DNA of 64,000 bases from an uncultured Saprospiraceae bacterium (GTDB taxonomy: Bacteria > Bacteroidota > Bacteroidia > Chitinophagales > Saprospiraceae): NCBI GenBank assembly GCA_938015435.1, contig CALLPN010000009.1, forward strand, positions 15,092 to 79,091, written 5' to 3'. Positions 14,864 to 61,110 of this stretch are shown piece after piece. Position numbers and translations under genes: made by a program. The notes beneath the pieces were generated by a model. That model saw only the letters and a program-made list of their open reading frames with translations, was not told the origin of the DNA and did no database searches. Numbering within the stretch: the stretch's first letter is position 1; each line of letters starts with the position of its first letter.

Positions 14864-14865
14864 TA

Positions 14866-28121: not shown

Positions 28122-28337
28122 ACTGATCAAAACGAATTTAATTTAAGTAGAATCAGAGATTATCGTTATCGTTTTGATCACTTAGCCTTATTCATATGTT
28201 GAAAACTTGCGACTGATCAAACCGATTTTACTTTGATTGCAATGAGATTTATCGTTATCGTTTTGATCACTTACTTTATCGATGCGATTGAGCTATCTAC
28301 ACTGATCAAATCGATTTTACTGATCAAAACGATTTTA
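28122..28337. repeat. Tandem hairpin-unit array A1 (~90-bp units, 2 full plus 2 truncated)
   Basis: ACTGATCAAA[A/C/T]CGA[A/T]TTTA occurs at 28122, 28212, 28301 and 28319. The partner arm TATCGTTATCGTTTTGATCACTTA occurs at 28161 and 28250. The last copy contains the TTA (28335-28337) that is the stop of the receptor gene. Confidence 0.9.
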
Positions 28338-30155
28338 ATACCCGATCTTGATGTCGGCGCCTATTGAAACCCATCTGCCTGGTAATTCTACGAGATTAGT
28401 CTCTCTATATATCTTATCAAATAGATTATTGATATTAAGTGATACTCGTACACTCTTAGTATCGTAGTACAACTTACTATCGACTACCGTGTAATTATCT
28501 AAATTGACTCTATCCACATATCTAAATTGAAGATTATGATGTATATCACCTACATGATATGCTACTCTTGCCGATAGCTGATGCTTGACGTGCTCTAAAG
28601 TATATCTACTCAAAAATGCATCTACATCACTTTGGTCTGCATCTAATAAAGTATAGTTGATTCCTACTGCAGATAACCCATATTTTCCAGCAGCATGGAA
28701 TCTCCATTGCGCAGACATTTCCAATCCATTAGTAGTAATATCTCCAATATTAATCGGTTGCCATTTAGATGTAGAGTCTGGTTTCGTCCAGTCTATCAGA
28801 TCATTTCCTTGTCTAGAGAATAAAGCAATCTGAGCATTAAAATTGCTCTTAATATACTTAGCTCCCACTTCCATTGAAAGTGCTTCTTCTGGCTGAAGAT
28901 CTTCATTTCCTACATTAGCTCTATCTTCATAATAAAGGTCAGTATAAGTCGGTACTCGGTATGTATATCCAGCGTTACCAAAAATCTTTAGATTATTATT
29001 AACCGCATATCCAATGTCTAATCCAGGAAATACTTTGGCATCCAAATCCGAAAAATATGAATAAGAAACACCTGGAGTAATATCTAGCTTTTCATCGAAG
29101 AAAAAGAACCTTTGCTCAGCATTGATTGTAGCAGTATTACGCTCTCTCATTCCTAGGTTATTACTTTCAAGATTCATAATGTTGTACTCCACGCCTACTT
29201 GAAATATTCCTACTTTGTTACTTGATCTAGCTTGAATCTCCGTATTAAGTACTTCACTTACATGTACATTATCGAAAGGAGAAGGACTCTCTCTTTGAAA
29301 TTTATAATCATCCTTATTACGTCTATAACTTACCTTCGGACTGATGTACCAGCCACCGATTAATTTACTATAATCCAATGCCACAAAGCTAGTATGAGTC
29401 TCTTCATACTGATCCATAAAATCAGGACTAGCATAGAATCCGTTAGCTCCAAATTTACGAGAGCTATGTGATGCCAATAGGTTCAATTGGTTACCATTAG
29501 ATCCCAATGATCCTTGATAAGTGTAATGCTCTATTTCGTAATCAGTATTGTATTTATAACCATTAGATGCATTGCGGCTATAGGATGCTGATTGACCAAA
29601 ACTTCCTATCGTATTAGATATCCCTAATCTTGTATCTAATAATTGGTAATCACCAGTATGTACACCAATAGATATCTCATTTTCGCTTGGTTTTTTGGTT
29701 ACAATATTGATCGCTCCAGAAAATCCATTTATTCCATATATTCGTGCAGCAGGCCCTTTGAGTACCTCGATACGTTCGATGTCTTCTATAGCTACCGGTA
29801 TATTCATGTTATGATGCCCTGTCTGAGGATCAGCTAGCTTGATACCATTGATCAATATAAGTGTCTGATCAAAATTTCCTCCTCTGATACCCACATCAGA
29901 TTGGACACCATGCGGCCCTCTTTGTCTTACATCTACACCTGCAACATCATTAAGAAGTTCTGCTACATTATTAGCTGACGAGGCTTTGATTACCTCCTCA
30001 GTCACTATATCAATACTTCTACTCGACTGCTTGAATGGTATTCCCAGTCTTTGTTCATGTATCACGATCTGAGAAAAATCTCCATATAGAGTATCTGTTT
30101 GTGCAAATACATTCATGGCGAGCATCCCAATGACGATTGTTAGAGTTAATTTCAT
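28335..30155 (-). CDS. TonB-dependent receptor (BtuB/CirA-size class, 606 aa)
   Basis: Signal peptide, plug-domain motifs (VDVRQRGPHGVQSDVGIRGGNFDQTLILINGI; IERIEVLKGPAARIYG) and a C-terminal aromatic residue (KIGY). Confidence 0.9.
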   Translation of the reverse strand: MKLTLTIVIGMLAMNVFAQTDTLYGDFSQIVIHEQRLGIPFKQSSRSIDIVTEEVIKASSANNVAELLNDVAGVDVRQRGPHGVQSDVGIRGGNFDQTLILINGIKLADPQTGHHNMNIPVAIEDIERIEVLKGPAARIYGINGFSGAINIVTKKPSENEISIGVHTGDYQLLDTRLGISNTIGSFGQSASYSRNASNGYKYNTDYEIEHYTYQGSLGSNGNQLNLLASHSSRKFGANGFYASPDFMDQYEETHTSFVALDYSKLIGGWYISPKVSYRRNKDDYKFQRESPSPFDNVHVSEVLNTEIQARSSNKVGIFQVGVEYNIMNLESNNLGMRERNTATINAEQRFFFFDEKLDITPGVSYSYFSDLDAKVFPGLDIGYAVNNNLKIFGNAGYTYRVPTYTDLYYEDRANVGNEDLQPEEALSMEVGAKYIKSNFNAQIALFSRQGNDLIDWTKPDSTSKWQPINIGDITTNGLEMSAQWRFHAAGKYGLSAVGINYTLLDADQSDVDAFLSRYTLEHVKHQLSARVAYHVGDIHHNLQFRYVDRVNLDNYTVVDSKLYYDTKSVRVSLNINNLFDKIYRETNLVELPGRWVSIGADIKIGY

Positions 30156-30481
30156 TTGTTTAATTTCAATTTATCTTTCTGAATCTATAATGCAATCTTA
30201 TCGAAAAGAAAACACCTCCAAGCTCAATGAGCATCAATGTTTGCAATATTGCAATGAAAGTGATAGACACTTAAAGAGCCGCAAATATATCAATACCTTA
30301 ACCATAGACTAATTCTTCCGTAACCAATCTGACTATTAAGTCTTTATATATTTTAGTTAGTGTCATGAATACACTATTGTTCTTGTGGTCACTTCACAAA
30401 TTTTAGAGGCTATTATAAAAACTCCCAATCAGCCTGAGTCCATTGGAAGTTGTATATTATCAAACAGTCTTTTTCTGATAC

Positions 30482-31360
30482 TTAGTCCCTATTCCATAGG
30501 AAAGATGCTCCTATTTGGATACGGATCCCACTGATATCATAAGGCAACGTAGTAGTTTCGTTACCATTATAGACTACTTTAGGATTCTCACCATTGAGAT
30601 CTAATCTCGATTCTTTAGCATCTTCGACTTGTGAAGTAAATATGATCGATCCATCAGAATTATTGCTACCTACATCATAATGAGCAGACAGAAATACGTC
30701 TACTCTATCCATTACTCTATATACTAAATCTATCGCTGGACCATACACCAATACACTAGATTGCAGTGCTACATCTAATGCTGGTTCGTTGTATTGTGTT
30801 TGTCCAATCTGGATAAACCCTGTATTGTTAAGCATCTGTCCTACTTCGAAACCAAAGCCTCCAAATCCTCCAAAGATTGATGGTCGTATCAATAATTCTT
30901 TGTCTCCTATATCTATCGGAAAATTCCAGCCTAATCCATAAGTTAACATCAAACCACTGCCTGCATCGCCTAAGGTAACGTCTATATCTAGATCGTGAGC
31001 TAAGCCACTATATCTTCCAAATTTATAACCCAATGAAATACCCACACTTGTGTACCCATCAGCTATCTCTGTAGTGGTCATTAAATTATCAGGAGAAGGA
31101 GAATTATCAGTAAATGAAGTGATTAACGTTCCTGGATCTGTAGAGATAAACCTTGGGCCAAAACCCAAAGTGATAGCTCTATATCTTTCATACTCCGTTT
31201 TAGCATATTCCTCTCCATCCTCTTCTTCATCCATCATCTCTTCCTTCTTTTCTATCTTCTTTTCCGCTCTTTTTTTACTGCCTCTTTTCTTCTGTCCATA
31301 CACTGCGCTGACGCTTATCATTACAATGGCTAATAATAATATTTTTTTCATTCTATTCAA
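30482..31360 (-). CDS. Secreted/outer-membrane hypothetical protein with a K/E-rich N-terminal segment
   Basis: Signal peptide (VSAVYGQ), a charged low-complexity stretch, then a beta-rich region. Confidence 0.5.
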   Translation of the reverse strand: MNRMKKILLLAIVMISVSAVYGQKKRGSKKRAEKKIEKKEEMMDEEEDGEEYAKTEYERYRAITLGFGPRFISTDPGTLITSFTDNSPSPDNLMTTTEIADGYTSVGISLGYKFGRYSGLAHDLDIDVTLGDAGSGLMLTYGLGWNFPIDIGDKELLIRPSIFGGFGGFGFEVGQMLNNTGFIQIGQTQYNEPALDVALQSSVLVYGPAIDLVYRVMDRVDVFLSAHYDVGSNNSDGSIIFTSQVEDAKESRLDLNGENPKVVYNGNETTTLPYDISGIRIQIGASFLWNRD

Positions 31361-31458
31361 TTCATTAAAGGGTTATAAATAAAATCTCATCATCCGAAAC
31401 TCGAACAATATGATGAGCTAAAGTAAAAATTATTTTGGATTAAGAATAATCATTGCTT

Positions 31459-32202
31459 CTAAGCATGCTTCAATATATCCTTCGCTTGATACCATTGATA
31501 TGCTTTACTAAAAATGATCGCTACTAATATAGCAGGCAGAAGATTCTCTAAGGTAATCTCACCAAGGTTCAGCATATTGATAGAGATACCAATAATAAGA
31601 ATTCCGCCCACAGAACTAACTAAGTCCAATGTATTTTTGTCAAATATTGGCTTTAGTACTTCAGCCAACATTGTAATTCCTCCTTGAAAAATAAGCATAG
31701 GAATAATAGAAAATAAAACTCCTATTCCGTAAGAAGCAGTAAGCGCAATAGCCGTAAAGCCATCCAAAGTTGATTTAACATAAATAAGATTCCGATCCTT
31801 GCTAAGACCTTCTTCTAACGCACCTACGATGGTCATACTACCAATGCAAAAAAGTAAAAAGGCCGTAATCAATCCTTCTGTAAATTTACTATCAGAAGCA
31901 CCAACTAATGTTTTTAAATGGTCAGACAAACCGGACATCAATTCGGCTAACCCTAACAACTCGCCTGAGATACCACCCAGTATCATAGCAAAAATAAAAA
32001 TTAGCATATAACCATCAGGCAACTTAAGTGCCATCTTAAGGCCGATAAGAATAGTACCTAAGCCCACCGCCTGAAAAACAATATTCTGAATATCTTCTGT
32101 AAATACTGACTGTAATAATAGACCTAATATACTTCCAATTGTTACTGTGAGCATATTGACAAATGTGGCAATTGGCCATTGGAGTCTAGATGATTTACTC
32201 AT
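31459..32202 (-). CDS. DUF554 family membrane protein
   Basis: The N-terminal pattern ATFVNMLTVTIGSILGLLL...QAVGLGTILIGLKM matches the YdfK/YqgA-type DUF554 pattern. Confidence 0.7.
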   Translation of the reverse strand: MSKSSRLQWPIATFVNMLTVTIGSILGLLLQSVFTEDIQNIVFQAVGLGTILIGLKMALKLPDGYMLIFIFAMILGGISGELLGLAELMSGLSDHLKTLVGASDSKFTEGLITAFLLFCIGSMTIVGALEEGLSKDRNLIYVKSTLDGFTAIALTASYGIGVLFSIIPMLIFQGGITMLAEVLKPIFDKNTLDLVSSVGGILIIGISINMLNLGEITLENLLPAILVAIIFSKAYQWYQAKDILKHA

Positions 32203-32663: not shown

Positions 32664-32743
32664 AATTGTAATATTAAGGAATTTTGTTGGCAGTTTTTAG
32701 CCGTGTTCAGTAGGCCGTTGGCATTAGGCAGTATGTAGGCGCT

Positions 32744-32786
32744 GTTGACTGTAGACTGTTGACAGTAGACTTTAGACTTTAGACTG
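32744..32786. repeat. Cluster of GACT/TAGACT short motifs just 3' of tonB
   Basis: GTTGACTGTAGACTGTTGACAGTAGACTTTAGACTTTAGACTG. Confidence 0.7.
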
Positions 32787-32790
32787 AAAA

Positions 32791-34492: not shown

Positions 34493-34497
34493 AGTCT

Positions 34498-34887: not shown

Positions 34888-34950
34888 ATCCTGATCTTAA
34901 TAGATACTATAACTGTAAATAACACATAATATTATTGTTAGTATCGAGTT

Positions 34951-35736
34951 CTACGATGATGGCTCTTGTAATAAATCCATGAAGTCCGTAGTGACACGCT
35001 CCATCTTGAAAATCACCTTCTCTACATTGGCTACTAATAAGTTATAACCAACAAAAGCAATAATACCGATCATCAAACCAAATGCTGTTGTCAATAAGGC
35101 TTGGTATATACCTTCTGCTAACTGAGCAGGACCTACGTTCTCTTCTGTTGCCATTGTCTGGAAGGCCAGAATCATACCCGTTACTGTACCGAAGAAACCA
35201 ATCATCGGTGCCGCACCAGCAATACTTGCCAGAGTAGATAGATTTTTCTCTAATTTGAATACCTCTAGATTACCAATATTTTCGATAGCTGCATCGATAT
35301 CTCTAAGTGGCTTTCCTATACGTTGTAGACCTTTTTCGACCATACGAGCCATTGGACTATCTGTACCGGCACAAGCTGCTTTAGCGCCTTCAATATTACC
35401 TGCCGCTACAGCAGACCTAATGTTGTTCATGAAGTTTTCATCTATTCTACCTGCTCTTTTGATAGTCATATACCTTTCAAAAAAGATATATACTGAGATA
35501 ACAGATAGTATCAACAACACACCGAATATAGACATACTCAAAATACCACCATCTATAATAATGTTTATGATGTTCTGAGCTGCACCTACTTCTTCAGTGT
35601 CTGGTGTCTGGAATAAAAAAAATCCTAAATGAAACATTAGCGTTTTTATTTGTAAGCCTATTAAAAGAATTCTAGTCCTCGAACATGATATGTATATAAG
35701 TAGTCCGCCTACTAGTAAAGTTATCGTTCGCATCAT
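34951..35736 (-). CDS. exbB: MotA/TolQ/ExbB proton channel family protein
   Basis: Three TM helices and the conserved region LASIAGAAPMIGFFGTVTGMI. The start could instead be Met34 (35637). Confidence 0.85.
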   Translation of the reverse strand: MMRTITLLVGGLLIYISCSRTRILLIGLQIKTLMFHLGFFLFQTPDTEEVGAAQNIINIIIDGGILSMSIFGVLLILSVISVYIFFERYMTIKRAGRIDENFMNNIRSAVAAGNIEGAKAACAGTDSPMARMVEKGLQRIGKPLRDIDAAIENIGNLEVFKLEKNLSTLASIAGAAPMIGFFGTVTGMILAFQTMATEENVGPAQLAEGIYQALLTTAFGLMIGIIAFVGYNLLVANVEKVIFKMERVTTDFMDLLQEPSS

Positions 35737-36022
35737 GAACGATGCTCAAATGCAATTAATTATTGCATAGACACAAAATTAACAATTAAATTTATATATT
35801 AAATAAATCCACCATTTGATTACAATGCTTTCCAAGTTACTGTAAATGTGACGATTACGCTGTATCTAGATACTTAATAAGTGTTATTTCTTACTTGTAA
35901 AGACAATAATAGTCTGAAAGAAGGTCCGAGGAAAGATATAGAAATGAGTAAACTACCAGCCCTTCTAGAATTCTTCTTCTAATTTCTCAGAATCCTTTCA
36001 AATTACAGGAATCATGAAAAAT

Positions 36023-36215
36023 ACTGGTCAAAACATTTTATTGATCACAGGTATGTCAACCATCGTTAATGTTTTGTCCCTGGAATTTATTCAGAATTGA
36101 TCTCTAACGACTGGTCGAAACATTTTATTAATTACCGAAATATCATTCGTCGTTAATGTTTTGTCCCTGAGAATTTATTCAGAATTGATCTCCAACGACT
36201 GGTCAAAACATTTTA
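36023..36215. repeat. Tandem hairpin-unit array A2 (87-88-bp units, 2 full plus a terminal arm)
   Basis: ACTGGTC[A/G]AAACATTTTA occurs at 36023, 36110 and 36198. The partner CGTTAATGTTTTGTCCCTG occurs at 36064 and 36150. The last copy contains the TTA (36213-36215) that is the stop of the adhesin gene. Confidence 0.9.
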
Positions 36216-39149
36216 TCTAATTATAGTGATATCACCAGACTTGAAGAATTTTTCGTCAGTTGCCGTCCTTACCTCAAGAAGATAGACATATACTCCAGAT
36301 AACACATCTTGGCCATTTAACTTACCATCCCAGCCTCTAGAAGACTCGCCGACAGCCATTTCTTTTGCCTCATAAACTAGACTTCCCCATCTATCGTAGA
36401 TGAGTAAACTCTCTATCATAGCACCATTATCTTCACCTTCAACCCAAAAAATATCATTGGAGCCATCTCCATTAGGTGAAAAAATATTAGGCACATATAT
36501 ATCAATGGAAGAATCTACTCTTAATTCGATCTCTTGACTGACACTACATCCATCATTGGTAATCAATTCGACAGTTATGATAGTGCTTTGCTTTTCATCA
36601 AAATCTATAGACTCACCTTGACCGATAAACTCTCCTAAAGCGTTGTACCAATTTATCTCAGCTATATCATCATCATTTACGGAGTGTTCTAGCACAAATG
36701 ATTCATTCGCGTAGTATTTGATATCTATTTCTGATGGTGCATCTAGGATGATTTCCAAAGGTTTAATTAATATAAGCTCTTCCGTATAGTTACATCCATT
36801 ATTATCCGTTATCGATAGATCATAAGTACCATCTGACAAGTCATTGAGCACCTCAGTTAACATTATCTCATTATCATCTATAGTTATGATATAAGGTGCT
36901 GCACCGCCAATAATAGACTCTACCATCATGAATCCATTATCGGTATCATAACACATCGGATCCGCAAGTTCACCCACGAAAGCAGTTGGAATATCCATGT
37001 TTTCGGTAATTGCAACTGTATCTCTACTTACACAGCCTAGAATTGTATTGGTTACAATGATTTCATACTCTCCTATCGAATTAGCTTCGATACGATCATC
37101 ACTTATATTGGTAAATGGATCTCCGCTGATCAGAATCCATTCATATAGAAATTCAGAACCAGTAGGTGCAATGGCTGATAACTCAAGTATTTGAGTATTA
37201 CAATTCCAAAGAATGTCTTGACCTGCATCTACTATTGGCCAATCCTTTATATCATTAATAGTAAATGTCTCAGTAGTCTGACAGCCATTAAATCCTATGA
37301 CAGTAAGCGTATAGGTTCCTGCTTGATCAATCATGATAACAGGGGCATCACTAGATATACCTGGACCAGACCACAGTTGAGATCTAGTGGCAACATCAGA
37401 GATATATGTAGCTTCTACCACTAATACATTGCAGTCTATATCCCTATAGTCAAGCGTAATAGATGGCTCTAAAAGATCACCATTTACATCAACGTTTTCT
37501 TCAGATATGCAGCCATTGGTTCCGGTGATCGTTACAGTATACATTCCTACCTGACTCACTATCGGTGATATATCATCTGAGGTAAACGAATCAGGTCCTG
37601 ACCAACTTACCGATTGCACATCTAAATCACTAGTGACGACTATAGTTCCCATTGGATCATCACATGTAATGATAGGTGGATCAATAGTTAATATCGGAGA
37701 GGTATTATCTTCAGTGATTTCTATCGTATGATTGATAATACAACCCGTCTCAATATCACTTGAAGTCAAAGCTACTGTATAGGATCCAGCAGTAGTTATT
37801 TCCAATGTCGCCGCATTGCCTAGAACTGTATTGCTAGCATCTGTCCATTCGAAGTTGAGTGACTCATTATTATTAATAATGTAAATCGGATTAAGTATAA
37901 TAGATTCTACATTACAGTCGATTTCAGATTCTCCGCTGTATTCTATATTATCAATTAGAATGGAGATACTGAATGAAAATCTAACCGAACAATCATTAGC
38001 ATCTTCAACCTCATAAAATCCAGCGCTACAGTAATCTACGCCTTGAAATTCGAAACAGTCCGATGCACAAATAAAGAAATTTCCTAGATCCGTTATTGAA
38101 CTAGGATTAAAAACTAGAGACTGTAAAAAAGTAGTACACCCTACTTCGCATTGAACTACGGTAGTTTCGGTATATGTTGAATCACAATATTCATATTCCT
38201 GCCCTTGACATAATACTATTTCTTGCTCTACTTGCAATACTTGAGATTCTACAACAATAGTTATCGTATTAAATATTACATCCGCAACTGTACAAGATCC
38301 AAGTCCGCCAAATACAGCAGGATTAAACTCAGCATTAGTGGTTATTTGGTAAGTCCCTTCGGAATAAAAGACTATCTGTGCACAGGCTGTACTTCCACCA
38401 CTCACTATATCATAAGCATCGTCAAGATTGATTGCCGAATTAGTAGGTGTACCTGCTACGGTCCATTCAAAACATGCCACATAACCAAGATCTGCTCCTG
38501 TTATGTCTCCACACGAAAAGCCACCAATATTTAAATCTGGTACATCAAAAGATACTTTGATTTGATCCCCTTCACATATGGATACACTTGATGCCGAAAT
38601 ATCTACATTGACATCATCAGGCTGCTCTGGTTCAGAAGTATCTATGCCACTCACCACTTCAAAAGTGTAATCACAAATTGAACCCGCGTAGCCATCTACA
38701 AATAAATAATAGATATTTCCAGGTATCATATCATTAAGAACAATATTAATCGGATCTACCCCTTGTTCAGCATAACAAAACATTGGGTTGCCAAAAGTAC
38801 AGTCCTCATACACTCCAGTTTGCAAGCCAAATAAATTAAACTGAGTTGGTGTACAAGAGGCAGGTATAATATTTAATTCTATTGTTGACTCACAGGGTAT
38901 AAATGAATACCATTGGTAATTATCTACATCACCTCCTACACATAAAACATCTGGATGACTACCTACTGACGTGTCTGTGGGTGTAGATGGAAGAGTACCT
39001 GTATATCCATCAAACAAATTACCACATAGAAAAACCGCAGAGTTACAATCTCCTCCGTTAGGAAGGATTTCTTCAAAACAATCTTGCGCTACCACGAAAA
39101 ATGGAAGGCAGAAAATCAAGAAAAGGGATTGCAGTATTTGGGTTCGCAT
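36213..39149 (-). CDS. Large Cys-rich cell-surface protein with a type-B T9SS C-terminal domain (gliding-motility-associated CTD)
   Basis: Signal peptide. Repeated Ig-like modules. The C-terminus VPNIFSPNGDGSNDIFWVEG...IYDRWGSLVYE...GWDGKLNGQDVLSGVYVYLLEV matches the CHU_C/TIGR04131 pattern. Confidence 0.85.
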   Translation of the reverse strand: MRTQILQSLFLIFCLPFFVVAQDCFEEILPNGGDCNSAVFLCGNLFDGYTGTLPSTPTDTSVGSHPDVLCVGGDVDNYQWYSFIPCESTIELNIIPASCTPTQFNLFGLQTGVYEDCTFGNPMFCYAEQGVDPINIVLNDMIPGNIYYLFVDGYAGSICDYTFEVVSGIDTSEPEQPDDVNVDISASSVSICEGDQIKVSFDVPDLNIGGFSCGDITGADLGYVACFEWTVAGTPTNSAINLDDAYDIVSGGSTACAQIVFYSEGTYQITTNAEFNPAVFGGLGSCTVADVIFNTITIVVESQVLQVEQEIVLCQGQEYEYCDSTYTETTVVQCEVGCTTFLQSLVFNPSSITDLGNFFICASDCFEFQGVDYCSAGFYEVEDANDCSVRFSFSISILIDNIEYSGESEIDCNVESIILNPIYIINNNESLNFEWTDASNTVLGNAATLEITTAGSYTVALTSSDIETGCIINHTIEITEDNTSPILTIDPPIITCDDPMGTIVVTSDLDVQSVSWSGPDSFTSDDISPIVSQVGMYTVTITGTNGCISEENVDVNGDLLEPSITLDYRDIDCNVLVVEATYISDVATRSQLWSGPGISSDAPVIMIDQAGTYTLTVIGFNGCQTTETFTINDIKDWPIVDAGQDILWNCNTQILELSAIAPTGSEFLYEWILISGDPFTNISDDRIEANSIGEYEIIVTNTILGCVSRDTVAITENMDIPTAFVGELADPMCYDTDNGFMMVESIIGGAAPYIITIDDNEIMLTEVLNDLSDGTYDLSITDNNGCNYTEELILIKPLEIILDAPSEIDIKYYANESFVLEHSVNDDDIAEINWYNALGEFIGQGESIDFDEKQSTIITVELITNDGCSVSQEIELRVDSSIDIYVPNIFSPNGDGSNDIFWVEGEDNGAMIESLLIYDRWGSLVYEAKEMAVGESSRGWDGKLNGQDVLSGVYVYLLEVRTATDEKFFKSGDITIIR

Positions 39150-42810: not shown

Positions 42811-43395
42811 CTTTCAAGATCAAGTTCAAATTTCCAGCCTTTGGCGGAATTCAAGTATCAAGATTAAAACAAAAGCGACGTCTAAATGGATGTTTATCTT
42901 TATTAATCATACTTTCAAGTCACTTCTTCGCCAATTCTTGTTTCTTCTTTTTATTTATAATTATAGTAGCAATAATTTTAATCAACTGTTCTGTTTCATC
43001 AAGTAACTGGTTTAACATGGAACTATTTCCATATTGAGCTTTATTTAAAATTCGTAGATTCACTCTAGACTCCTTTAATTCTTTGATAACAATGGTAGCT
43101 CTACTTATGTAGTCTTTCAAGCTATTTGTTCCTTGAGTTTCTCCGAAATTGAGTACTGAGCTTCCGCTGGACCTTAGGATTTGATTACCATAATAATTTC
43201 CAATGTTATCATTGGGAAGGTCTTTCACAAACTTTATCATCTGGGCGGCATAATCTACCAATCGATCTTCTAAGTCAAACTTTTTTTCCATTCCTTATTT
43301 CAATCTTAATATTTCATAAAGCGCATGCCAAGACTTATTTAATATTGAACTTGACTTCCGCCTTCAGGTCGGAATATTGATACTTGAGCTTGAAC
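42811..43395. mobile_element. Inverted-repeat-flanked cassette carrying a four-helix-bundle (23S rRNA IVS-type) gene
   Basis: 55-bp arms at 42811-42865 and 43341-43395 are ~75% identical in inverted orientation. Each has a TTCCGCC...GG.GGAA core flanked by TTGA[A/T]ACTTGA modules. They bracket the 372-bp ORF. Confidence 0.45.
42920..43291 (-). CDS. Four-helix-bundle protein (23S rRNA intervening-sequence protein family)
   Basis: 123 aa. The pattern FDLEDRLVDYAAQMIKFVKDLP...QILRSSGSSVLNFGE...IVIKELKESRVNLRIL is typical of the TIGR02436/PF05635 family. Confidence 0.8.
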   Translation of the reverse strand: MEKKFDLEDRLVDYAAQMIKFVKDLPNDNIGNYYGNQILRSSGSSVLNFGETQGTNSLKDYISRATIVIKELKESRVNLRILNKAQYGNSSMLNQLLDETEQLIKIIATIIINKKKKQELAKK

Positions 43396-43399
43396 TTTT

Positions 43400-43439
43400 A
43401 CAGTCCAATTCAAACTTAATTAAGTTTGAATTGAACTGT
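43400..43439. repeat. 40-bp palindrome spanning the sprA stop codon
   Basis: ACAGTCCAATTCAAACTTAA/TTAAGTTTGAATTGAACTGT, with 19 of 20 positions complementary. The stop complement TTA is at 43416-43418. Confidence 0.85.
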
Positions 43440-46400
43440 AATTCCTCCTTCCATATTAGTCCTATCAAATGAAGTACGACTATATGGCTTTGTCTTAGAA
43501 TACTCAAAGAAGAAACGCAAATTAAGATTTTCATTCATCTCATAATCGATATATGGATTTATAAATAGTCTCACTTGACCTCTTTGAGGCTGTGCTTCCA
43601 ATTCTTCTTTAAATCTATAGATCCATGTGACATCATCGCTATACGAAAAGTCAAAATTCATAGTAATATTTCTTCCTCTTGAACTTTTCACATTTCCACC
43701 TCTACCTCTTTTTTTCGTTTTACTCTTATCGGTAGTTTGCGGATCTGACTTGTCATCTGTTTCTTGATCTTTTTTCTTTCGCTTACTCTTCTTCTTTTTT
43801 CCAAAGCCTTTGAAATCTTTGATTGTATATGCAAATCCAGCGATGTACTCTGTTCCTAATATTTCCGTGAGATTACCCGCTGCTATTCCTAGATCAAGTC
43901 TTCTACTTTTACGATACTCGAAGTTTAATTCAAGATCAGTCTTCGTCTTGAGATTGATACCTAATACTGGAGCAAATTGCTCGTCGATTGAGATCGTCGG
44001 TACTTCAACACGAGAATAATAATTTCCGTTAGTCTTCAACGTTTGTGTTTGTCCAGGTTCCAAATTATCAATATATTCTGGTTGAGAATTAAATCTATTG
44101 ACTCGTATACTCGATTTGTAGCCATGTGTAAGTGAAAAACTATTTAAGACATCTTTGAATATACTTAGTTTCGATAGACCATCATATTTGATAGTCCAGT
44201 TTGGTTTAGGTATGTAGTTATAGTCTTTTATAGTCTCATCTATTGATGCATTAACATCTATATCGTCTATCGTCTTGTTGGTATATGCACCTAAGAATGC
44301 AGGAATCAAAACACGACTATTATCAGGACCATATCCTAATTTATAATTAGGAAAATCATCACTAAATGGAATTGAGGGATCACCAGGTAATTCATTACTT
44401 ACTTGTTCTCTGAGGTCAATGAAATTTTGGTACAAGTCTCCATTATTTTTAAATAGAGTACTAAGCCCTGAGTATGTCGCCTCAAACGATCCAAAGTCAT
44501 ATCCAGCATTCTGAACAAATTCAATAGGATCTCCAGGATCACTTTTATTCTTAAATACTTCCGTATGAGTCTCTTGATAATCTTTACGGAACGTTACGTC
44601 GATATCAAAATCTTTGAAGGGCTCAATTCCAATCTTCAGATCAAAGTTGTGTCTTCGCATTTGCACGATTTCATCACTAAAATTCTGCGATGAATTGAAA
44701 TAACCATTTACAATATTTCTCTTTAAATAGTTATTGTCGTCATTACTATCCAGATTTGGCTGTATACCTCCAATAAATGCCCAACCTGGAGCTGAAAACC
44801 CTCTACTCATCCCTAGCAAATTAGACTGAGGCATAAATCCTGGAAGGAATGTAGATTGATCTTCTTTATACGAAAACTTAACATCTCTTAAAGCCAACAA
44901 TGGTCTCACTAATATTTTTTCGAGTGTAGATGGACCAGTATCTTCTTTCTTTTTCTTATCATTCTTATCACCTTTTTTCTTGTCATCAGAGGCACCCAAC
45001 GCGTCTTTACTTTTACTTCTAGTCCTACTACGTCCTGCTCTTTTTCTACCTGCTTTACCTTTATCTATTGTCTTAAGGTATGGTATTTTACTATACAACT
45101 TATCAAATGAGAATGTCACATTTCCAGACCTTCCTTGGTTATTAGAAATTGTATTACCTAGAAGTGTCCCAGCTTTATCGATCGTGATCAATGCACCACC
45201 TTCCCATTGATATCCTGCTTTGTAATCAGCCTTCGCCGTAATCCAATCCATACCAGGAATCAATTTAAATGGCAGAGTGTATGTCGCTGTAATATTATGG
45301 TTGTAGTTTTTACTTCTACCGAGATCTCTTAAATTTCTATTACGATATTCGCTGACAAAATTAGGATTGTCGGATACTTGATCATCGTAACTCGTACCAC
45401 TTTCACTAAGAGGGCTCCCTGCTTGATCCACCCATTGTCGATCTGCCGGACTAGTAGAACTAATTCCTATTTGACGGAGTTCATCGACTACAGCAGAAGC
45501 ATTCGCTTTATAGGTAAACTTCAGAGCTTTGGTTAGATTCCAATTTAGCCCGTATCTACGTTCCCATATAAATCTCTGATCATCAAATGTAAATATGGGT
45601 GTATCTGGTAATCTGTAAGTACGCGTAGATTTTTTACGATTAAGCGTTGTTCCAAATGTAACCGCGTTAGGTAGCAAGTTGAAATTAAACTCACTGATCA
45701 ATTTCAATTTCTTATTCTTGATAAACTTGAATGGCTTAATATGTCCGCCTTTACGACTATAGTTATAATCAAGTCCACCGGTATGCTCAGTAATCTTATC
45801 TTCTTCTATAATCGGATCCGTAATCTTAGTTTGAGTATATGCGTAAGATGCACTGACGTTAGATATATCCCAAGGGTAACTCGTCTTTTTATCTTTACTT
45901 TTCACTTTCTTTACATTGGTAAAATTCAATGTCTTGATCGTCGATGTCTCTTTAGATCTCGACTCTACATCTTCTCGAGAAGCTCCTGCGGCGACAGCTT
46001 CGTCGAAAGTTAGATCTTCCGAGTATGCTTCGAATTTTGGAGACTTCACTGATTTACTGTATTGTGCAAAGAAAGGTATCGAAAGACCCATACCATCTGC
46101 TGGCAATAATTTACTAAGTTCCAGGCTCGTAGAAGCATCATAATCCAATTGCGCAAACTGGTTTCGTTCTTCGAGTTTTTGATCTAATCCTCCCCACCCT
46201 TCACTAGTGAAAGTTGTCGCAAAATTAAGCTCTCCAAGGTCGGCCATCTGCATCTGCAATCTCGCCGTTGCTGCGTATCCGATCTGCTCTTTGAACCCTG
46301 CAACACGAAGCTCATTGATCCATACTTTCCCTTTTAATGTCTTAGATGTTATTGTGTCGACATTCACTGCTCCTATTTCGATTTCGCGAACATTAGCAAG

Positions 46401-53525: not shown

Positions 53526-53618
53526 GTTTGTGTTAGGTATGGAAAACATTCTGCAACTTTTGAGAAAATAAACTGATACACCTTAGAGTTTATATTTATT
53601 GAAAGCGTTTCCTTAATA

Positions 53619-54479
53619 ATGGAAATAATACAAGATACATTTTCGGATTATTTTCATGTAGCAATATTCTATTTACCTAAGTATTTAGTTGCAATAGTCA
53701 CTTTAGTCATACTTGCATTTATTCTTTTTGGATTAAGAAAGAAGATCTCAACGTATCTTATTTCTCGCGCTGATGATAAACTTTTGGTCAATTTTATTGA
53801 TAGTACATTCAAATCATCAATATGATCCTTGGGGCGAGTTTATTTCTAAATATCACCGATAATAGTTCTATCGCTAAAGAGATATTAGGCGCTGCTGGAA
53901 TCTCCGCATTTGTAATTGGATTTGCGTTCAAGGATATCGGTGAAAATTTATTGGCCGGAATAATATTAGCCTTTAACCGTCCTTTTCCATTAGATGATTT
54001 CATCAAAACTGATGATATAGAAGGCAGTATATTAGAAGTAAGTCTAAGATACTCACATCGAAACATCGGATGGCAAAGATGACTACGTCCCAAATGGACA
54101 AATTCTCAAAAACCCATTATTCAATTATACCATAGATGGATATTTGAGAAAGCAATTTCAAATAGGCATCGGATATGAAAGTGACATCAAACGAGTACGA
54201 GAGTTAGTATACCAAGGGCTCATTAAAATTCCTAGAATACTAACTCAAACAAAAGTCTCTTCAGTTCAAATCAGCGAATTGGGCGACAGTGCTATTATTG
54301 TTACTGCTCAATATTAAATCAATGCACTTAATAAAAAATATTCTTCGGCTGAGATGCAGAATGCGGCTATCAGTAATGTGTTTCATGTATTGCAATCTAA
54401 AGGTATTTCATTACCAGGCAATGTCATTGAGGTAAAGCAATTAAAGGTTTTTTCACTTATGAGAAATCGCCATCTCTAG
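53619..54479 (+). pseudogene. Mechanosensitive channel (MscS family) pseudogene: two frameshifts plus an in-frame stop
   Basis: Three consecutive pieces lie in different frames. Piece 1 is 53619-53825 (N-terminal TM). Piece 2 is 53822-54082 (FVIGFAFKDIGENLLAGIILAFNRPF...). Piece 3 runs from ~54069 in the +1 frame (SDGKDDYVPNGQILKNPLFNYT...VTAQY) and is interrupted by TAA at 54315-54317. The 3' limit is uncertain. Confidence 0.75.
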
Positions 54480-55439: not shown

Positions 55440-55458
55440 GATGGTTTTCTTTTTGTAA

Positions 55459-56262: not shown

Positions 56263-56407
56263 GATTGTCTCTTATTGGTGATGAGACAAATATGAATACA
56301 AATTCTACTTCAACACGAATCTAAGTGACGGCCATCAAGATAGTGTGATGAATAGCAAATTGTTAGTGGCCACAAGAGATTGCTATATACCACAAGGCCC
56401 ATGATAA

Positions 56408-57235
56408 TCAATGAGTTAACAATAAATTTCTTATTGTAGCTACTTTAGATCTAGCTACCGGAATTGTGTTTTCTAAGCCTAATAAATTGAGCTTAGAGTT
56501 GGTGACATTACCTTTAATATCTAAGATTTTGGAAATATTGACTAAGTAGGATCTATGACATTGAATAACCGAATCGCTATCCAATTGGGCATAAATATTT
56601 TTCAATGTATTGCGAATCATATATCGAGAAGGAATACCATCAGTTGTGCAGTATACGATTACATAATTGTCACTACTTTTGATACATAATAGATCATTAT
56701 ATGTTGTACTTATTACTTCAGATTGATTAGAGCTTTTGAGTATGATTTCATTTGCACTAATAATATCGACTGCTTGAGTTGGTTCTGCATATTTCACATC
56801 TCTATAAGCAATATATAGAAATAAGAAATAAACGGCCAAAGGGACGATAGCAACGGCTGTAGCCGATACGATAAATCCAGAAAAAATGGAAAAGTCAAAA
56901 TCTACTTGAAAAACAAGAGTCCAATAGATAAAGCATGCGACGAGACAAAAAATGAGATTCATTAAAACGAATATCACTTCAGACATAATCGACCAGCGAT
57001 CTACGCTCCTATCCGTCAATAACGATTTGGAAATCAAAAAATAAACTATACTCCCTACAAAAACTACTACACCATATCCAGCAAGAATCCAATATTTGAA
57101 TGGATGCTGAAAACTAGCAGTTCCGAAAGGCTCGAAAGCTATCAATATAAAACTAATCGATAGCGCAATTGCGAACGAAACCTTAGAAAATATACTTTGA
57201 CTTGCCTTTGGATATGGAACAGTGAATGGATTCAT
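56408..57235 (-). CDS. Membrane-anchored LytTR-domain DNA-binding protein
   Basis: Four to five N-terminal TM helices. The C-terminal part LLCIKSSDNYVIVYCT...IQCHRSYLVNISKI matches the LytTR domain. Confidence 0.8.
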   Translation of the reverse strand: MNPFTVPYPKASQSIFSKVSFAIALSISFILIAFEPFGTASFQHPFKYWILAGYGVVVFVGSIVYFLISKSLLTDRSVDRWSIMSEVIFVLMNLIFCLVACFIYWTLVFQVDFDFSIFSGFIVSATAVAIVPLAVYFLFLYIAYRDVKYAEPTQAVDIISANEIILKSSNQSEVISTTYNDLLCIKSSDNYVIVYCTTDGIPSRYMIRNTLKNIYAQLDSDSVIQCHRSYLVNISKILDIKGNVTNSKLNLLGLENTIPVARSKVATIRNLLLTH

Positions 57236-57285
57236 TTATACAACCTTAATTTCCGAGTATTATTTTCAAAAAATTAGTCATTTTT

Positions 57286-57796
57286 CGTGAACGAAGATTG
57301 ATCTGGAATTTTGTACCAAGTTCAGCTTATTTTGACTATCAATTTCGTTTTTGTTTTTCTTTAAATGAGATTCATCTTGAACGAAGATTGATCTGGAATT
57401 TTGTACCAAGTTCAACTTACATGACTATCAACTTCGTTTTTGTTTTTTTCTATATGAGATCTATCGTGAACGAAGATTGATCTGGAATCTTATACCAAGT
57501 TCAGCTTATTTTGACCATCAACTTCGTTTTTGTTTTATTTAAATGAAATCTATCGTGAACGAAGATTGATCTCAACTCTATTGCAAGTTGAATTTATTAA
57601 GAGTATCAACTTCGTTTTATGTTTTTCTACATGAGATCTGTCGTGAACGAAGATTGATCTGGAATCTTATACCAAGTTCAGCTTATTTTGACTATCAACT
57701 TCGTTTTTGTTTTATTTAAATGAAATCTATCGTGAACGAAGATTGATCTCAACTCTATTGCATGTTGAATTTATTAAGACTATCAACTTCGTTTTA
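57286..57796. repeat. Tandem hairpin-unit array A3 (six 88-90-bp units)
   Basis: C[G/T]TGAACGAAGATTGATCT occurs at 57286, 57376, 57465, 57554, 57642 and 57731, each partnered by ATCAA[C/T]TTCGTT. Units 3+4 are re-duplicated as units 5+6. The last unit contains the smpB stop (TTA 57794-57796). Confidence 0.95.
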
Positions 57797-58258
57797 TGTA
57801 TACCTTTTCATTTCTCTATCTAGTTCGCGTTTTACATCCTTTTCCTTGATGCTATTTCGCTTATCAAAAGACTTTTTACCTTGGGCCAACCAAATATTTA
57901 ATTTGACAAAACCTCTTTCCGAAAAGTAGATTTTATAGGGTACTAATGTCAAGCCTTTTTCATCAAGCTTACGTTTAATTTTTTTGAGTTCTGGCTTTCG
58001 CAGTAAGAGTCTTCTATCTGCACGAGTCTCATGGTTATTGATATTACCATGATCGTATTCTGCGATAAACATACTCTTGATTATCAGATTACCATTATCA
58101 AAAATACAATACGCATCAGCTAGATTAGCGTTACCTGACCTCATAGCTTTCACTTCCGTGCCCTTAAGCATTATGCCTGCTTCGAATTCATCGACAAGAG
58201 TATATTCGTACTTTGCCTTTCTATTTACTATTACTGGAGTATCTGTCTGTTTCGCCAT
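57794..58258 (-). CDS. smpB: SsrA-binding protein SmpB
   Basis: NRKAKYEYTLVDEFEAGIMLKGTEVKAMR... is the canonical SmpB N-terminus. Size 154 aa. Confidence 0.95.
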   Translation of the reverse strand: MAKQTDTPVIVNRKAKYEYTLVDEFEAGIMLKGTEVKAMRSGNANLADAYCIFDNGNLIIKSMFIAEYDHGNINNHETRADRRLLLRKPELKKIKRKLDEKGLTLVPYKIYFSERGFVKLNIWLAQGKKSFDKRNSIKEKDVKRELDREMKRYT

Positions 58259-60466
58259 CTATGGTCTAATTGGATCTTGATTCCCTGCATTATTTGATTG
58301 CAAGCTTTCTTTAAGGAAGTTAGTCATTTTCGTATACAGATGTATCCTTGCATTATCTCCGTATATACCATGGTTACGATTAGTGTAATAGTACTGATCA
58401 AACTGCTTGTTAGCTTCTATCAATGCTCTAGTCATCTCAGCAGAATGTTGAAAATGTACATTATCATCTCCTCCTCCATGGATAAGCAAATAATCACCTT
58501 TGAGTCTGTCCGCAAAGTAAATTGGAGAGTTATCCTTATACCCACTTTCGTTCTCCATGAGCGTACGCATATATCTCTCTGTATAAATTGTATCATACCA
58601 CTTCCAACTTGTTACTGGTGCTACTGCTATCGCCGCTTTGAATACATCATTACCTTTTAGTATTGCTAAAGAAGACATATATCCACCGTACGACCAGCCA
58701 AAAATTCCAACATTATTTGCATCTACATTAGGCAATGTACCCAACCATTTAGCAGTCTCAATCATATCCATAGTCTCATACTTACCAAGCTCTAGATATG
58801 TCTGCTTACGAAACTCTTCGCCTCTAGCGCCTGTACCTCTTGGATCGACACAGACTACGATGAATCCTTGCTGAGTAAGATGCTGATACCACCAGTAGTT
58901 AGATCCCTTCCATGAGTCAGTTACTTGCTGACTATTAGGGCCACTGTATTGCGTTACGAGTACCGGATACTTTTTCCCTTTCTGCATATTACGCGGTTGC
59001 ATCATCCAACCGTTAAGTTTTACATTTTCGCTTGTAGTAAAATCAAAAAACTTTGCTTTAACAGTTCCATATGCTTGCTGCTTCTCCACTAGAGTTTTGT
59101 TATCTTCCAGTGCTCTTACTAGATCACCATTACGCGCATATACATTGTAAGTCGATGGAGTGTTGATCGTACTATTCGAAAGTATGTAATAATCAAAAGT
59201 ACTACTGAATGTTGCACTGCTTGTTCCAGTTTTTTTGTCCAAGACTTTAGGCTTTTTGCCTTTGTATCCTATTTCGAAAACTCTTTTCTCCATTGGAGTT
59301 CGATCCGCAGCTTGGTAATATATCTTTTTCATTTTCTCATCCACACCATAAAAGGCTGTTACGTCATAATTACCTTTAGTCAATGCTCTTTTTTCTTTAC
59401 CATTCATTCCATATAGGTAGATATGATTGAACCCATCCTTCTCACTAGTCCAGATGAACTCTTTACCATTCTCCAAGAATGTAAGATTATCATGTATATC
59501 AATATAGTACTTACTCTTTTCGTCTAACATTACTGAAGAAGAACCATCTTTAGCGTTGACTATGTATAGCTCTAAGTGATTTTGATGACGATTCATTTTA
59601 TAGGCACATAATTTACTTTCGTCCGTTGTCCACTTAAGCCTTGGAATGTACATATCATCTAGATTTCCTAAATCCACTTTGACTGTCTTTCCTTTGCCAC
59701 CTACATGATAGATATGTGCAGATACCTTTGCATTCTCTTCGCCTACTTTAGGATACTTAAAAACAATATTTTCTGGATACATCTCATCGTTATACATCTG
59801 CATTGTAAATTCCTTAACAGCTGTCTCATCAAACCTAATAAAAGCGATTTTCTTACTATCTGGTGACCAGAAAAAAGCCTTAGCAAAAGAAAACTCTTCC
59901 TCATACACCCAATCTGCTGCACCATTGATGATCTTATTATATGCACCGTCAGTAGTAATTGCGGTTATCTTATTTGTCGCTAGGTCTTTTGTATACAAGT
60001 TATTATTGTAAACAAAAGCGATGTGTTTATCATCAGGAGATAATGTACCATAGCTGATTTTGTCACCATCAAAGACTTCAGAGAGTTTCATTGTAGCTCT
60101 GTCATACACATAGTAATTAGCCTTAAATGATCTACGATAAATTGATTCTCGGTTATTCATAATGATGATCTTACTTTCATCGCTATTAAACGAGTAGCTT
60201 CCTATACTGAAATCATCACCTAGTTTAGCTCCATCAAGGATATCTTCTACGAAGTCACCAGTCGTCAAATCATACTTTTTGATTACATTATTTTGCTTAC
60301 GAGTATAATGCCTGCCATCATTGAGAAAGTTAAATCCTGGAACTCTCTTAGGTGAAAATGTACGGTTAGTCCAGATATCTTCTAACGAGATTTGCTTTTG
60401 AGCAGTAACATTTGAGCTACTGATATAGAGCATTAGCACTAGTAAGCTTGTGATATATTTTGTCAT
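58259..60466 (-). CDS. Dipeptidyl-peptidase IV (S9B prolyl oligopeptidase family)
   Basis: Signal peptide, a DPPIV N-terminal beta-propeller region and the catalytic GWSYGGYM serine motif. The Asp and His regions are near the C-terminus. Confidence 0.9.
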   Translation of the reverse strand: MTKYITSLLVLMLYISSSNVTAQKQISLEDIWTNRTFSPKRVPGFNFLNDGRHYTRKQNNVIKKYDLTTGDFVEDILDGAKLGDDFSIGSYSFNSDESKIIIMNNRESIYRRSFKANYYVYDRATMKLSEVFDGDKISYGTLSPDDKHIAFVYNNNLYTKDLATNKITAITTDGAYNKIINGAADWVYEEEFSFAKAFFWSPDSKKIAFIRFDETAVKEFTMQMYNDEMYPENIVFKYPKVGEENAKVSAHIYHVGGKGKTVKVDLGNLDDMYIPRLKWTTDESKLCAYKMNRHQNHLELYIVNAKDGSSSVMLDEKSKYYIDIHDNLTFLENGKEFIWTSEKDGFNHIYLYGMNGKEKRALTKGNYDVTAFYGVDEKMKKIYYQAADRTPMEKRVFEIGYKGKKPKVLDKKTGTSSATFSSTFDYYILSNSTINTPSTYNVYARNGDLVRALEDNKTLVEKQQAYGTVKAKFFDFTTSENVKLNGWMMQPRNMQKGKKYPVLVTQYSGPNSQQVTDSWKGSNYWWYQHLTQQGFIVVCVDPRGTGARGEEFRKQTYLELGKYETMDMIETAKWLGTLPNVDANNVGIFGWSYGGYMSSLAILKGNDVFKAAIAVAPVTSWKWYDTIYTERYMRTLMENESGYKDNSPIYFADRLKGDYLLIHGGGDDNVHFQHSAEMTRALIEANKQFDQYYYTNRNHGIYGDNARIHLYTKMTNFLKESLQSNNAGNQDPIRP

Positions 60467-60663
60467 AGGTCTATTCTGAAATTATACAATAAGACTTCAA
60501 AGCTAATAATAACCTTGATTATAGATTAATAAGGCAAGAGCTTTTACTGTCTGTCAAGATACTAACGTCATTTGGGTCTAAATAGATTCCTTTATATTTT
60601 TCCTTAATAGCCGTAGATAAAAAGGTTTCATGCAGATCTTCACGGATATAACTTTCAATAATA

Positions 60664-61110
60664 GGATTCTTGATATAAGTTTATATCACTTAGTTATAGA
60701 TTCTTTTGGACCATCAAGAACATTTTGTCTAAACCATCATGGTATTCTTTCGTGAATGTTCTTGATATGGGTCTATATCACTTAGTTATAGACTTTTTGG
60801 GGACCCTCAAGAACATTTTTGTCTAAACCATTATGGTATTCTTTCGTGAACGTTCTTGATATAAGTAATATCACTTAGTTATAGACTTTTTTGGACCATC
60901 AAGAACATTTTGTCTAAACCATCATGGTATTCTTCCTGAATGTTCTTGATATGGGTCTATATCACTTAGTTATAGACTTTTTGGGGACTATCAAGAACAT
61001 TTTGTCTAAACCATCATGGTATTCTTTCGTGAATGTTCTTGATATGGGTCTATATCACTTAGTTATAGACTTTTTGGGAACCCTCAAGAACATTTTGTCT
61101 AAACCATCAA
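60664..61110. repeat. Tandem hairpin-unit array A4 (five 90-94-bp units)
   Basis: GAA[T/C]GTTCTTGATAT occurs at 60754, 60848, 60938 and 61031, with a degenerate copy at 60664. The partner is ATCAAGAACATTTTG. A nested hairpin GTCTATA-TCACTTAGT-TATAGAC is present. The final unit overlaps the last 4 codons of the kinase gene. Confidence 0.95.

Follow-up and report, generated by a model that had tools for sequence, protein, structure and literature searches.

Tandem arrays of a hairpin-forming repeat adjoin stop codons in an uncultured Saprospiraceae bacterium: a candidate clade-restricted REP/REPIN-like family

What kind of element lies at the ends of four genes in the genome of an uncultured Saprospiraceae bacterium, and do its four occurrences belong together? 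The stretch of this genome that we analyzed (64 kb, G+C content 36%; here called the window, meaning the whole of the stretch) contains four tandem arrays of units that can fold into hairpins, each array adjoining the stop codon of a minus-strand gene. SmpB encoded in the window is 93–96% identical to SmpB of Saprospiraceae metagenome-assembled genomes.

The reading that we prefer, and to which we give an even chance, is that the arrays represent a clade-restricted family of extragenic hairpins resembling REP (repetitive extragenic palindromic) sequences and REPINs, which was amplified in place and would act in the form of RNA hairpins in 3′ untranslated regions (3′-UTRs) or between cistrons. 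It is the REP-like features of the units, described below, that lead us to see them in this way.

Structure of the four arrays

Tandem Repeats Finder (TRF) recovered all four arrays at the loci named in the initial annotation, with periods of 87–93 bp, and the arm sequences quoted there are present as written. Array 1 (positions 28107-28337, minus strand; TRF 28107-28321/28337) comprises 2.4 copies of an 89-bp period. Arm mapping placed its arms at 28336-28319 (A), 28318-28301 (A), 28270-28252 (B), 28229-28212 (A), 28181-28163 (B) and 28139-28122 (A), and the covariance model matched units at 28249-28321 and 28160-28232. For array 2 (36023-36234, minus strand) TRF reported 2.4 copies of 87 bp; the arms, located by mapping and by the covariance model, lie at 36214-36198 (A), 36167-36150 (B), 36126-36110 (A), 36080-36063 (B) and 36039-36023 (A). 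Array 3 (57282-57799, minus strand; TRF 57285-57799; 89 bp × 5.8, also 177 bp × 2.9) is composed of six A-loop-B units (57727-57798, 57638-57710, 57550-57621, 57461-57533, 57372-57443 and 57282-57354), and the alternation of two unit subtypes gives rise to its 177-bp higher-order period. Array 4 (60652-61109, minus strand; TRF 60667-61109; 93 bp × 4.8, also 185 bp × 2.4) contains five units (61024-61099, 60931-61006, 60841-60914, 60747-60822 and 60652-60729), the last with a truncated B arm. In total, the arrays hold 15 full or near-full units plus partial arms, fewer than the approximately 17 units first estimated.

Read on the gene-sense (minus) strand, arm A has the form AAAAYG..TTGAY.RGT and arm B the form RTCAA..CRTT(A/C)ACGA. 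The two arms are complementary and alternate along each of the four arrays, with 26–31 nt between A and B and 18–21 nt between B and the next A. The first and last arms of arrays 1 and 2 are both A, while arrays 3 and 4 begin with A and end with B. Because the arms alternate, each B arm that stands between two A arms is able to pair with either of them; neighbouring arms are joined by exact 13-nt inverted repeats. A single unit of approx. 70 nt consists of a 5′ A-run, a 12-bp AU-rich outer stem, a partly structured loop of 30–40 nt and a 3′ (C/A)ACGA(TAA/TAG) tail.

All six frames are closed in the arrays (2–16 stop codons per frame of every array), which are therefore non-coding. A scan for tRNA and tmRNA produced no match, and the arrays are free of tRNA genes. 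None of the Rfam families matched the window at gathering thresholds, and nothing relevant appeared over the arrays at E ≤ 5, in agreement with the earlier failure to recognize a named repeat family. The sole, sub-threshold Rfam match was to CRISPR-DR25 (18.9 bits against a cut-off of 36, E = 4).

The copy numbers of arrays 3 and 4 rest on one assembly and depend on it, since the independent same-strain short-read contigs L001 and L092 break inside those arrays. Array 1 is spanned by another same-strain contig (L093), which matches window positions 27950-28130 at 100% and has the same intergenic length of 370 bp. Exact-protein look-ups gave same-strain contigs only for the proteins that flank the arrays, and no record for the ORFs at the ends of the window.

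Position of the arrays relative to stop codons

Each array is co-oriented with a minus-strand gene and starts 0–5 nt from the stop codon of that gene (4/4), and the same range of distances was found at the loci in three other genomes (L004, L082 and L091), which are described below. The identities proposed for the four genes agree with Pfam. They are, all on the minus strand, a TonB-dependent receptor (28335..30155, TAA stop at 28335..28337) adjoining array 1, a CHU_C protein of the type IX secretion system (T9SS) of 978 aa (36213..39149, TAA at 36213..36215) adjoining array 2, SmpB (57794..58258, TAA at 57794..57796) adjoining array 3, and a deoxynucleoside kinase (dNK; 61099..61752, TAG at 61099..61101) adjoining array 4. 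The arrays do have the common orientation that had been proposed as a rule; with all four upstream genes encoded on the minus strand, however, it is inseparable from the orientation of the genes.

The first A arm opens with TAAAA at arrays 1, 2 and 3, and the TAA within it is the stop codon. In array 1 this TAA forms the first 3 nt of TAAAATCG, the beginning of the arm; in array 2 it sits within TAAAATG of the arm, and in array 3 it directly precedes the arm (TAA followed by AACGAAGTTGATAGT). In array 4 the A-run of the A arm begins 2 nt downstream of the dNK TAG and pairing begins approx. 5 nt downstream of it.

The repeated unit takes in the stop codon and, in arrays 2 and 4, also approx. 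9–12 nt of the end of the coding sequence (CDS). Alternate units of array 3 carry ACATAA, and the units of array 2 carry TAATTA.ATAA. The TRF extent of array 2 (to 36234) makes the last CHU_C codons part of the repeat. The last approx. 10 nt of dNK belong to the repeat unit of array 4, in which each unit repeats ATGGTTTAG, i.e. the last two dNK codons and the stop. From the stop codons and CDS-end bases within the units, together with the two-unit periods of 177 and 185 bp, it is evident that a segment beginning at or just upstream of the stop codon was duplicated locally in tandem to give each array. The arrays are therefore not series of insertions; single units occupy the smpB and dNK sites of the sister species L004.

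It had also been claimed that the final unit of each array supplies or overlaps the stop codon. The abutment is real at every array, but the stop codons are native and not supplied by the element, since relatives with and without units end the respective proteins at the same codon: SmpB and dNK in L002, L003 and L004, the CHU_C protein in L100 and L101, and the TonB receptor in L105, L106 and L108. Judging from the arm coordinates, the unit tail provides no second stop codon in frame.

Pairing and sequence conservation of the arms

The complementarity of the arms within an array, with paired bases that differ between loci, was borne out by an alignment of 20 units. In this alignment, which was produced by the model and hence fitted to the structure, 92.6% of the cells are paired (80.9% in shuffles and at most 47.6% when the partners are slid), both sides have changed in 6/11 pairs, and the covariation score of 0.34 (0.13 in shuffles) was reached by 0/500 shuffles. 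Units within one array are not independent, and as only 5–7 evolutionarily independent loci underlie these figures, the covariation across loci is suggestive rather than statistically strong.

Examples of the changes are the middle triplet of the stem (UUU:AAA for arrays 1 and 2, AAG:CUU for array 3, UUC:GAA for array 4) and the variable position of AYG:CRU, where arrays 2 and 4 have U:A and arrays 1 and 3 have C:G. They also occur between orthologous sites. The dNK units have AUG:CAU in the window and ACG:CGU in L004, with a U·G intermediate in unit 60841-60914, and the smpB units have AACG:CGUU in the window and GCG:CGC in L004. The comparison of G·U with A·C mismatches was uninformative as to the strand, in part because array 1 and the bulge of array 3 are mis-registered in the model alignment.

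These data retain one part of the claim that selection acts on the hairpin and not on the primary sequence, namely that pairing is kept. The other part does not hold, for there is conservation of the sequence itself in AAAA, in TTGAT/ATCAA and in the (C/A)ACGA(TAA) tail, which is unpaired. Selection is not on pairing alone, and some motifs are kept as such.

Relationship between the arrays and search for further members

If the four arrays were unrelated minisatellites that arose from different gene-end hairpins, their common features would be due to chance and AT-rich composition. Such an origin would account for the failure of profile hidden Markov models (HMMs; nhmmer) built from single arrays to find the other arrays, with the exception of a weak link between arrays 1 and 2 (E 0.02–0.3), and the window does hold other, unrelated tandem arrays. 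By sequence alone, family membership of the four arrays is weak, and structure-aware models are needed.

For cross-validation, a covariance model was trained only on the two L004 units together with arrays 3 and 4, and the whole window was scanned without filters. The top non-training matches were the two units of array 2, one at 20.7 bits (E 0.02) and the other at 19.1 bits (E 0.05). The two units of array 1 scored 13.3 and 13.2 bits, which at E ~1.3 would also be compatible with unrelated repeats. Against this, the four held-out units were all matched in exact register and on the correct (minus) strand, and they account for 4 of the six best non-training matches. Moreover, the loci have in common several unpaired motifs that are not demanded by pairing and therefore support a common family: AAAA as the lead, GTC downstream of arm A, AG upstream of arm B, and (C/A)ACGA(TAA/TAG) as the tail. 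A degenerate two-arm pattern recovered additional tandem complementary units that abut stop codons, including those at the orthologous TonB-receptor site. We consider it extremely unlikely that the arrays are unrelated, and the initial grouping of the four into one family stands, on the basis of a shared architecture and of a weak but real common signature.

The pattern, which imposed most of the arm features in advance, was applied to public metagenome contigs and found 10 loci. Six of them were judged to be chance occurrences, all being located inside open reading frames (ORFs). The remaining four are real and correspond to two distinct sequences, each seen twice (L082/L087 and L091/L083). 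The contigs L082 and L087 are syntenic with window positions 15–33 kb and encode a TonB receptor of 84% identity. In L082, the TAA of this gene is followed by GG, arm A (AAAATGTTGTTGATCC), arm B (GATCAAGAACATTCACGATAA) and a second, degenerate unit, so that two units are present. The arms at this site, which is orthologous to that of array 1, are of the array-4 type and thereby connect the sub-types with one another. In L091/L083 there are four diverged tandem units, the first arm of which contains the TGA stop codon of a 364-aa ORF.

The covariance model detected no further copies on either strand of the window. Two models (R1 and R3) run over smpB-centred loci (1.34–1.38 Mb) of 80 other Saprospiraceae/Bacteroidota genomes revealed no member outside the closest relative; a match in L014 was rejected, as it lies inside the CDS of DPP-IV. 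Two scans of viral contigs yielded no real family member. The family thus appears to be restricted to a narrow clade, and systematic amplification appears only in the genome of the window. We found no description of a comparable family in Bacteroidota, and as far as Rfam and the searchable literature show, the family is undescribed.

Comparison with orthologous sites in relatives

The relatives obtained for comparison show approx. 72–78% DNA identity to the window and to each other. The number of units at orthologous loci, which the initial annotation had proposed to compare, differs: relatives of approx. 75% identity carry 0, 1 or 2. At the smpB site there are 6 units in the window, 1 in L004 and none in L002 and L003; at the dNK site, 5 in the window, 1 plus a degenerate second in L004 and none in L002. 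The TonB-receptor site has 2.4 units in the window, 2 in L082, a doubtful remnant in L106 and none in L105 and L108, where a canonical bidirectional terminator is present instead. At the CHU_C site, 2.4 units in the window correspond to none in L100 and L101–L103.

The single units of L004 follow directly after the smpB TAA and the dNK TAG. Between them and the window the arms are 80–88% identical, the loops 41–51% and the flanking genes approx. 78%. This greater conservation of the arms than of the loops suggests that constraint acts on the arms. A different picture emerged at the TonB-receptor site, where the units of the window and L082 (arms 67%, loops 33%) are no closer than paralogues, which suggests turnover of the units.

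When relatives without array 2 were compared with the window for the boundaries of an insertion, the intergenic DNA proved not to be alignable except for one conserved block. This 78-bp block (35730-35807) lies upstream of exbB, of which it is probably the promoter or leader, and a Bacteroidota −7 box (TAATTTTG) is located within it at 35781. It is 95–99% identical to L100 and L101 (genomes of approx. 72% overall identity), and the intergenic DNA around it is unalignable. Immediately after the CHU_C stop in L101 (9743-9790) there is also a sequence resembling a collapsed unit, TAG ATCTTGTTGAT TGTTTTA CAACGATTA, with an arm-A-like part (TTGTTGAT), a tail-like part (AACGATTA) and no loop, which may be a deletion remnant at the array-2 site.

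A patchy distribution of this kind (0, 1, 2 or as many as 6 units per site in species that are about equally distant from each other) is also what a selfish non-autonomous DNA element of the REPIN or MITE (miniature inverted-repeat transposable element) type would produce, whose hairpin would be needed in single-stranded DNA for mobilization by a transposase encoded elsewhere. We regard this as a possible, though rather unlikely, explanation. The units at the TonB-receptor site would fit replacement or independent insertion, the loop motifs shared by arrays 1, 2 and 3 (TCAAC..AATAA) imply copying from a common source, and REPINs offer a precedent for tandem arrays and compensatory changes (PMC3116915). 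On the other hand, neither a transposase nor a RAYT was found in the 64 kb. In agreement with what had been noted at first, the Pfam scan of the window ORFs revealed no transposase, integrase, cas or reverse transcriptase gene, and the called genes of L093 and L100 gave no transposase match. Furthermore, the dispersed copies are strongly diverged, without cross-detection by HMMs or any sign of recent transposition; the arms are not palindromic REPs and lack a GTAG or CGTC tag; and their conservation at the smpB and dNK sites between species of approx. 78% identity suggests constraint after insertion.

In such a scenario, the abutment of stop codons would reflect a target preference, with TAA/TAG often present on both sides, combined with purging elsewhere, and the arrays would be functionless by-products; this extension we hold with the same reserve, as a tentative alternative. 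TAA/TAG indeed flanks the units on both sides at 5/8 loci (array 1, array 3, the smpB and dNK sites of L004, and L082), although 2–5 unpaired nt lie between the inverted repeat and the flanks; in MITEs, the terminal inverted repeats extend to the ends of the element, next to a target-site duplication. Arrays 2 and 4, however, lack the second copy, and the arm does not begin at a fixed distance from the stop codon (0 to 5 nt).

Comparison with known repeat systems

REP/REPIN-type repeats have been described mainly from Proteobacteria. A REP is a palindrome of 20–40 bp with a stem of at least 8–9 bp, a loop of 4–5 nt and an unpaired GTAG or CGTC tag; it is located <20 bp from the end of the upstream ORF, to which it sometimes contributes the stop codon (PMC3733652). 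Translation is down-regulated by REPs that lie <16 nt from a stop codon, according to a passage of PMC12306157 that cites earlier work. The units described here resemble the REPs and BIMEs of Enterobacteria and Pseudomonas in being extragenic and non-coding, and in lying between unidirectional or convergent ORFs (PMC3733652; PMC2817692; PMC12306157). They also share the closeness to the upstream stop codon, the BIME pattern of copies in alternating orientation with two alternating linkers, and a presumed transcription and action as RNA hairpins. In contrast to a REP, a single arm (17–19 nt) is not self-complementary, and its partner is located 26–36 nt away. The stems are AU-rich, not G+C-rich; the outer ends are AAAA and (C/A)ACGA (TCGTG/TCGTT on the other strand, which is only CGTC-like) instead of a GTAG/CGTC tag; the copies at different loci are far more diverged than in typical REP families, and no RAYT was seen.

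REPINs, which are built as inverted doublets, fold into hairpins that show compensatory changes, and they also form tandem arrays in which two spacings alternate (PMC3116915). Common to REPINs and the present units are two inverted conserved arms with a less conserved spacer, a hairpin of approx. 70–110 nt, compensatory changes, and highly ordered tandem arrays that have two alternating spacings and, within one region of the genome, a single orientation (PMC3116915). Nevertheless, the arms of REPINs are REP sequences tied to a flanking RAYT, and their hundreds of near-identical copies are random in extragenic space, whereas the units described here adjoin a stop codon at all known loci and have diverged copies, and the scanned ORFs contained no RAYT.

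The MIRUs, which Supply and co-workers reportedly described in 1997, are said to be tandem units of 46–101 bp, intergenic within operons, in one orientation, overlapping the upstream stop codon and variable in copy number between strains. Tandem units, one orientation relative to genes, overlap with the upstream stop codon and variable copy number are found here as well. MIRUs are discussed in PMC12548453. They differ in that they carry small ORFs overlapping the flanking stop and start codons and have no defining hairpin, while in our units the frames are closed and the unit is the hairpin.

ERIC/IRU, Correia/NEMIS and RUP elements are imperfect hairpins of 70–150 nt near gene ends that are co-transcribed and affect mRNA processing or stability. 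The long imperfect hairpin near a gene end is a common feature; these elements, in contrast to ours, have terminal inverted repeats at their ends and target-site duplications, exist in many similar copies and are rarely tandem. The transcription of palindromic MITE-like repeats into RNA hairpins has been reviewed in general terms (PMC3184786).

Other candidates were rejected: (i) integron attC sites, since the R″/R′ cores (RYYYAAC ... GTTRRRY) are not at the arm ends, the flanks are syntenic housekeeping genes and the tandem units have no intervening ORF, (ii) CRISPR, since the "spacers" are themselves repeated within an array and there is no cas gene in the window, (iii) the TAACTGA heptamer repeats (PMC4679880), which are different, and (iv) the BrickBuilt MITE/minisatellite of P. 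gingivalis, which was likewise judged to be different (PMC4596501).

Hence, REP/REPIN/BIME and MIRU repeats already offer examples of closeness to a stop codon, of hairpin doublets that covary and of tandem arrays, and it is the family that is new, not the kind. Its unusual features are the first arm 0–5 nt from the stop codon at every known locus, the AU-rich hairpin with a large loop, and the amplification of every resident copy in one genome.

Transcription and possible function of the units

The ordinary terminators of this genome, as seen elsewhere in the window, are short-looped G+C hairpins preceded by an A-tract and followed by a T-tract. Intrinsic (Rho-independent) terminators were rejected as an explanation for the units, which have an AU-rich stem, a loop of 30–40 nt and no U-run after the stem on the sense strand; a terminator scan called no site in any array on either strand. 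The arrays also do not exceed shuffles in their content of canonical terminators or of sigma-70 promoters, and they contain no Bacteroidota −7 box (TAnnTTTG) on either strand.

Downstream of array 3 there is a gene encoding a LytTR-domain protein (56408..57235, minus strand). In L002 this gene begins only 9 nt after the smpB stop, in an operon-like manner, and there is no −7 box between array 3 and the LytTR gene start in the window; on these grounds, sense transcription probably reads through array 3. Both exbB and the DPP-IV gene, situated downstream of arrays 2 and 4, respectively, have a −7 box of their own.

According to our preferred reading, each resident unit would have been amplified in place by slippage or unequal exchange, including two-unit higher-order duplications. 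A unit would form part of the transcript of the upstream gene without acting as a strong block to sense transcription. The resulting RNA hairpin, in the 3′-UTR or between cistrons, could shield the 3′ end of the upstream mRNA and/or hinder the ribosome during termination, the latter because the mRNA footprint of a ribosome located at the stop codon includes the first arm. For the element to reach new stop codons, some copy mechanism would be needed. Should the units act on mRNA ends or terminating ribosomes, they would constitute a lineage-specific layer of post-transcriptional control in the abundant freshwater and marine Saprospiraceae.

Several observations weigh against this reading. Transcription, strand and function of the units are all inferred. 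Six genomes at a similar distance (L002, L003, L100, L101, L105 and L108) have no units at the same sites, and the element is therefore dispensable for these genes. The independent loci number only 5–7, two of the additional ones having come from the pattern with pre-imposed arm features. Internal units show uncompensated mismatches, so there may be little constraint on most copies of an array. The hairpins of single units have only modest stability (−9 to −18 kcal/mol, z −0.9 to −3.75), several unit loops forming an inner stem. Finally, for whole arrays the antisense folding z-score is equal to or better than that of the sense strand at 7/8 loci (−3.9 versus −1.0 for array 3), and the conserved A-run is a U-run after the hairpin on the antisense strand.

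The last two points raise the question of whether the units are antisense-strand terminators or insulators, in which a plus-strand hairpin with a U-run ending at the stop codon would block convergent or antisense transcription and let sense transcription pass. We think this unlikely. The A-run 5′ of arm A is kept in nearly all units, giving TTTT(A/G/T) after the stem on the other strand, and array 3 is very U-rich at this position (TTTTTGTTTTTTT); in addition, at the convergent TonB-receptor/SDR site the canonical terminator of L105 and L108 has its place taken by units in the window and L082. Yet AU-rich stems with loops of 30–40 nt are unlike the genome's own terminators and were called on neither strand, a convergent neighbour exists at only 1/5 loci, five to six tandem terminators have no obvious reason, and the smpB unit of L004 has no clean U-run.

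A mechanistic tie of the element to the stop codon, which we consider very unlikely, could take the form of (a) non-autonomous insertion targeted to TAA/TAG or (b) a ribosome-sensing RNA relay. In the relay, a terminating ribosome would cover and melt the first A arm, and the pairing register would then shift along the whole array, as every B arm can pair with the A on either side (loops of approx. 30 or 20 nt). In this way, what happens to RNA hundreds of nucleotides downstream would be linked to translation of the upstream gene.

Being variable, the arrays would in addition be usable as strain markers. A practical consequence of their presence is that short-read assemblies of this lineage break at the arrays, as in L001 and L092.

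Other features of the window

A different tandem array (62590-62993; 59 bp × 6, also 177 bp × 2), not detected by the models of the hairpin family, is located in the divergent region between the ORFs on the HPPK side and a gene for a 105-aa GIY-YIG nuclease (63137..63454, plus strand). Downstream of a gene for an outer membrane protein (OMP) beta-barrel, positions 14791-14978 contain a perfect 16-bp × 4.4 repeat (TGTGTTTCGGAGTCCA) immediately followed by a 60-bp × 2 repeat with a GTGTTTTAC...GTAAAACAC hairpin.

A near-perfect palindrome of 44 bp (43398-43441; arms of 23 nt, 96% complementary) overlaps the stop codon (43416) of a gene encoding a 2528-aa SprA-like protein. Between this gene and a histidine kinase gene there is a 123-aa gene of the 23S_rRNA_IVP family (42920-43291, minus strand), encoding an Avd-like four-helix bundle, with no reverse transcriptase nearby; it is found in the same place in L101 and is absent in L100.

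Short overlapping ORFs on both strands (53809..54093, minus; 53822..54082, plus) occupy 53600-54330, within approx. 900 bp devoid of a long ORF, and may represent a frameshifted or decayed gene. At approx. 16000-24000 the GC skew changes from +0.10 to −0.15 where gene orientation flips from plus to minus, with convergent genes at 21757/21884. This switch could be a replication terminus or the result of coding-strand bias, and all four hairpin arrays are located on its negative-skew side.

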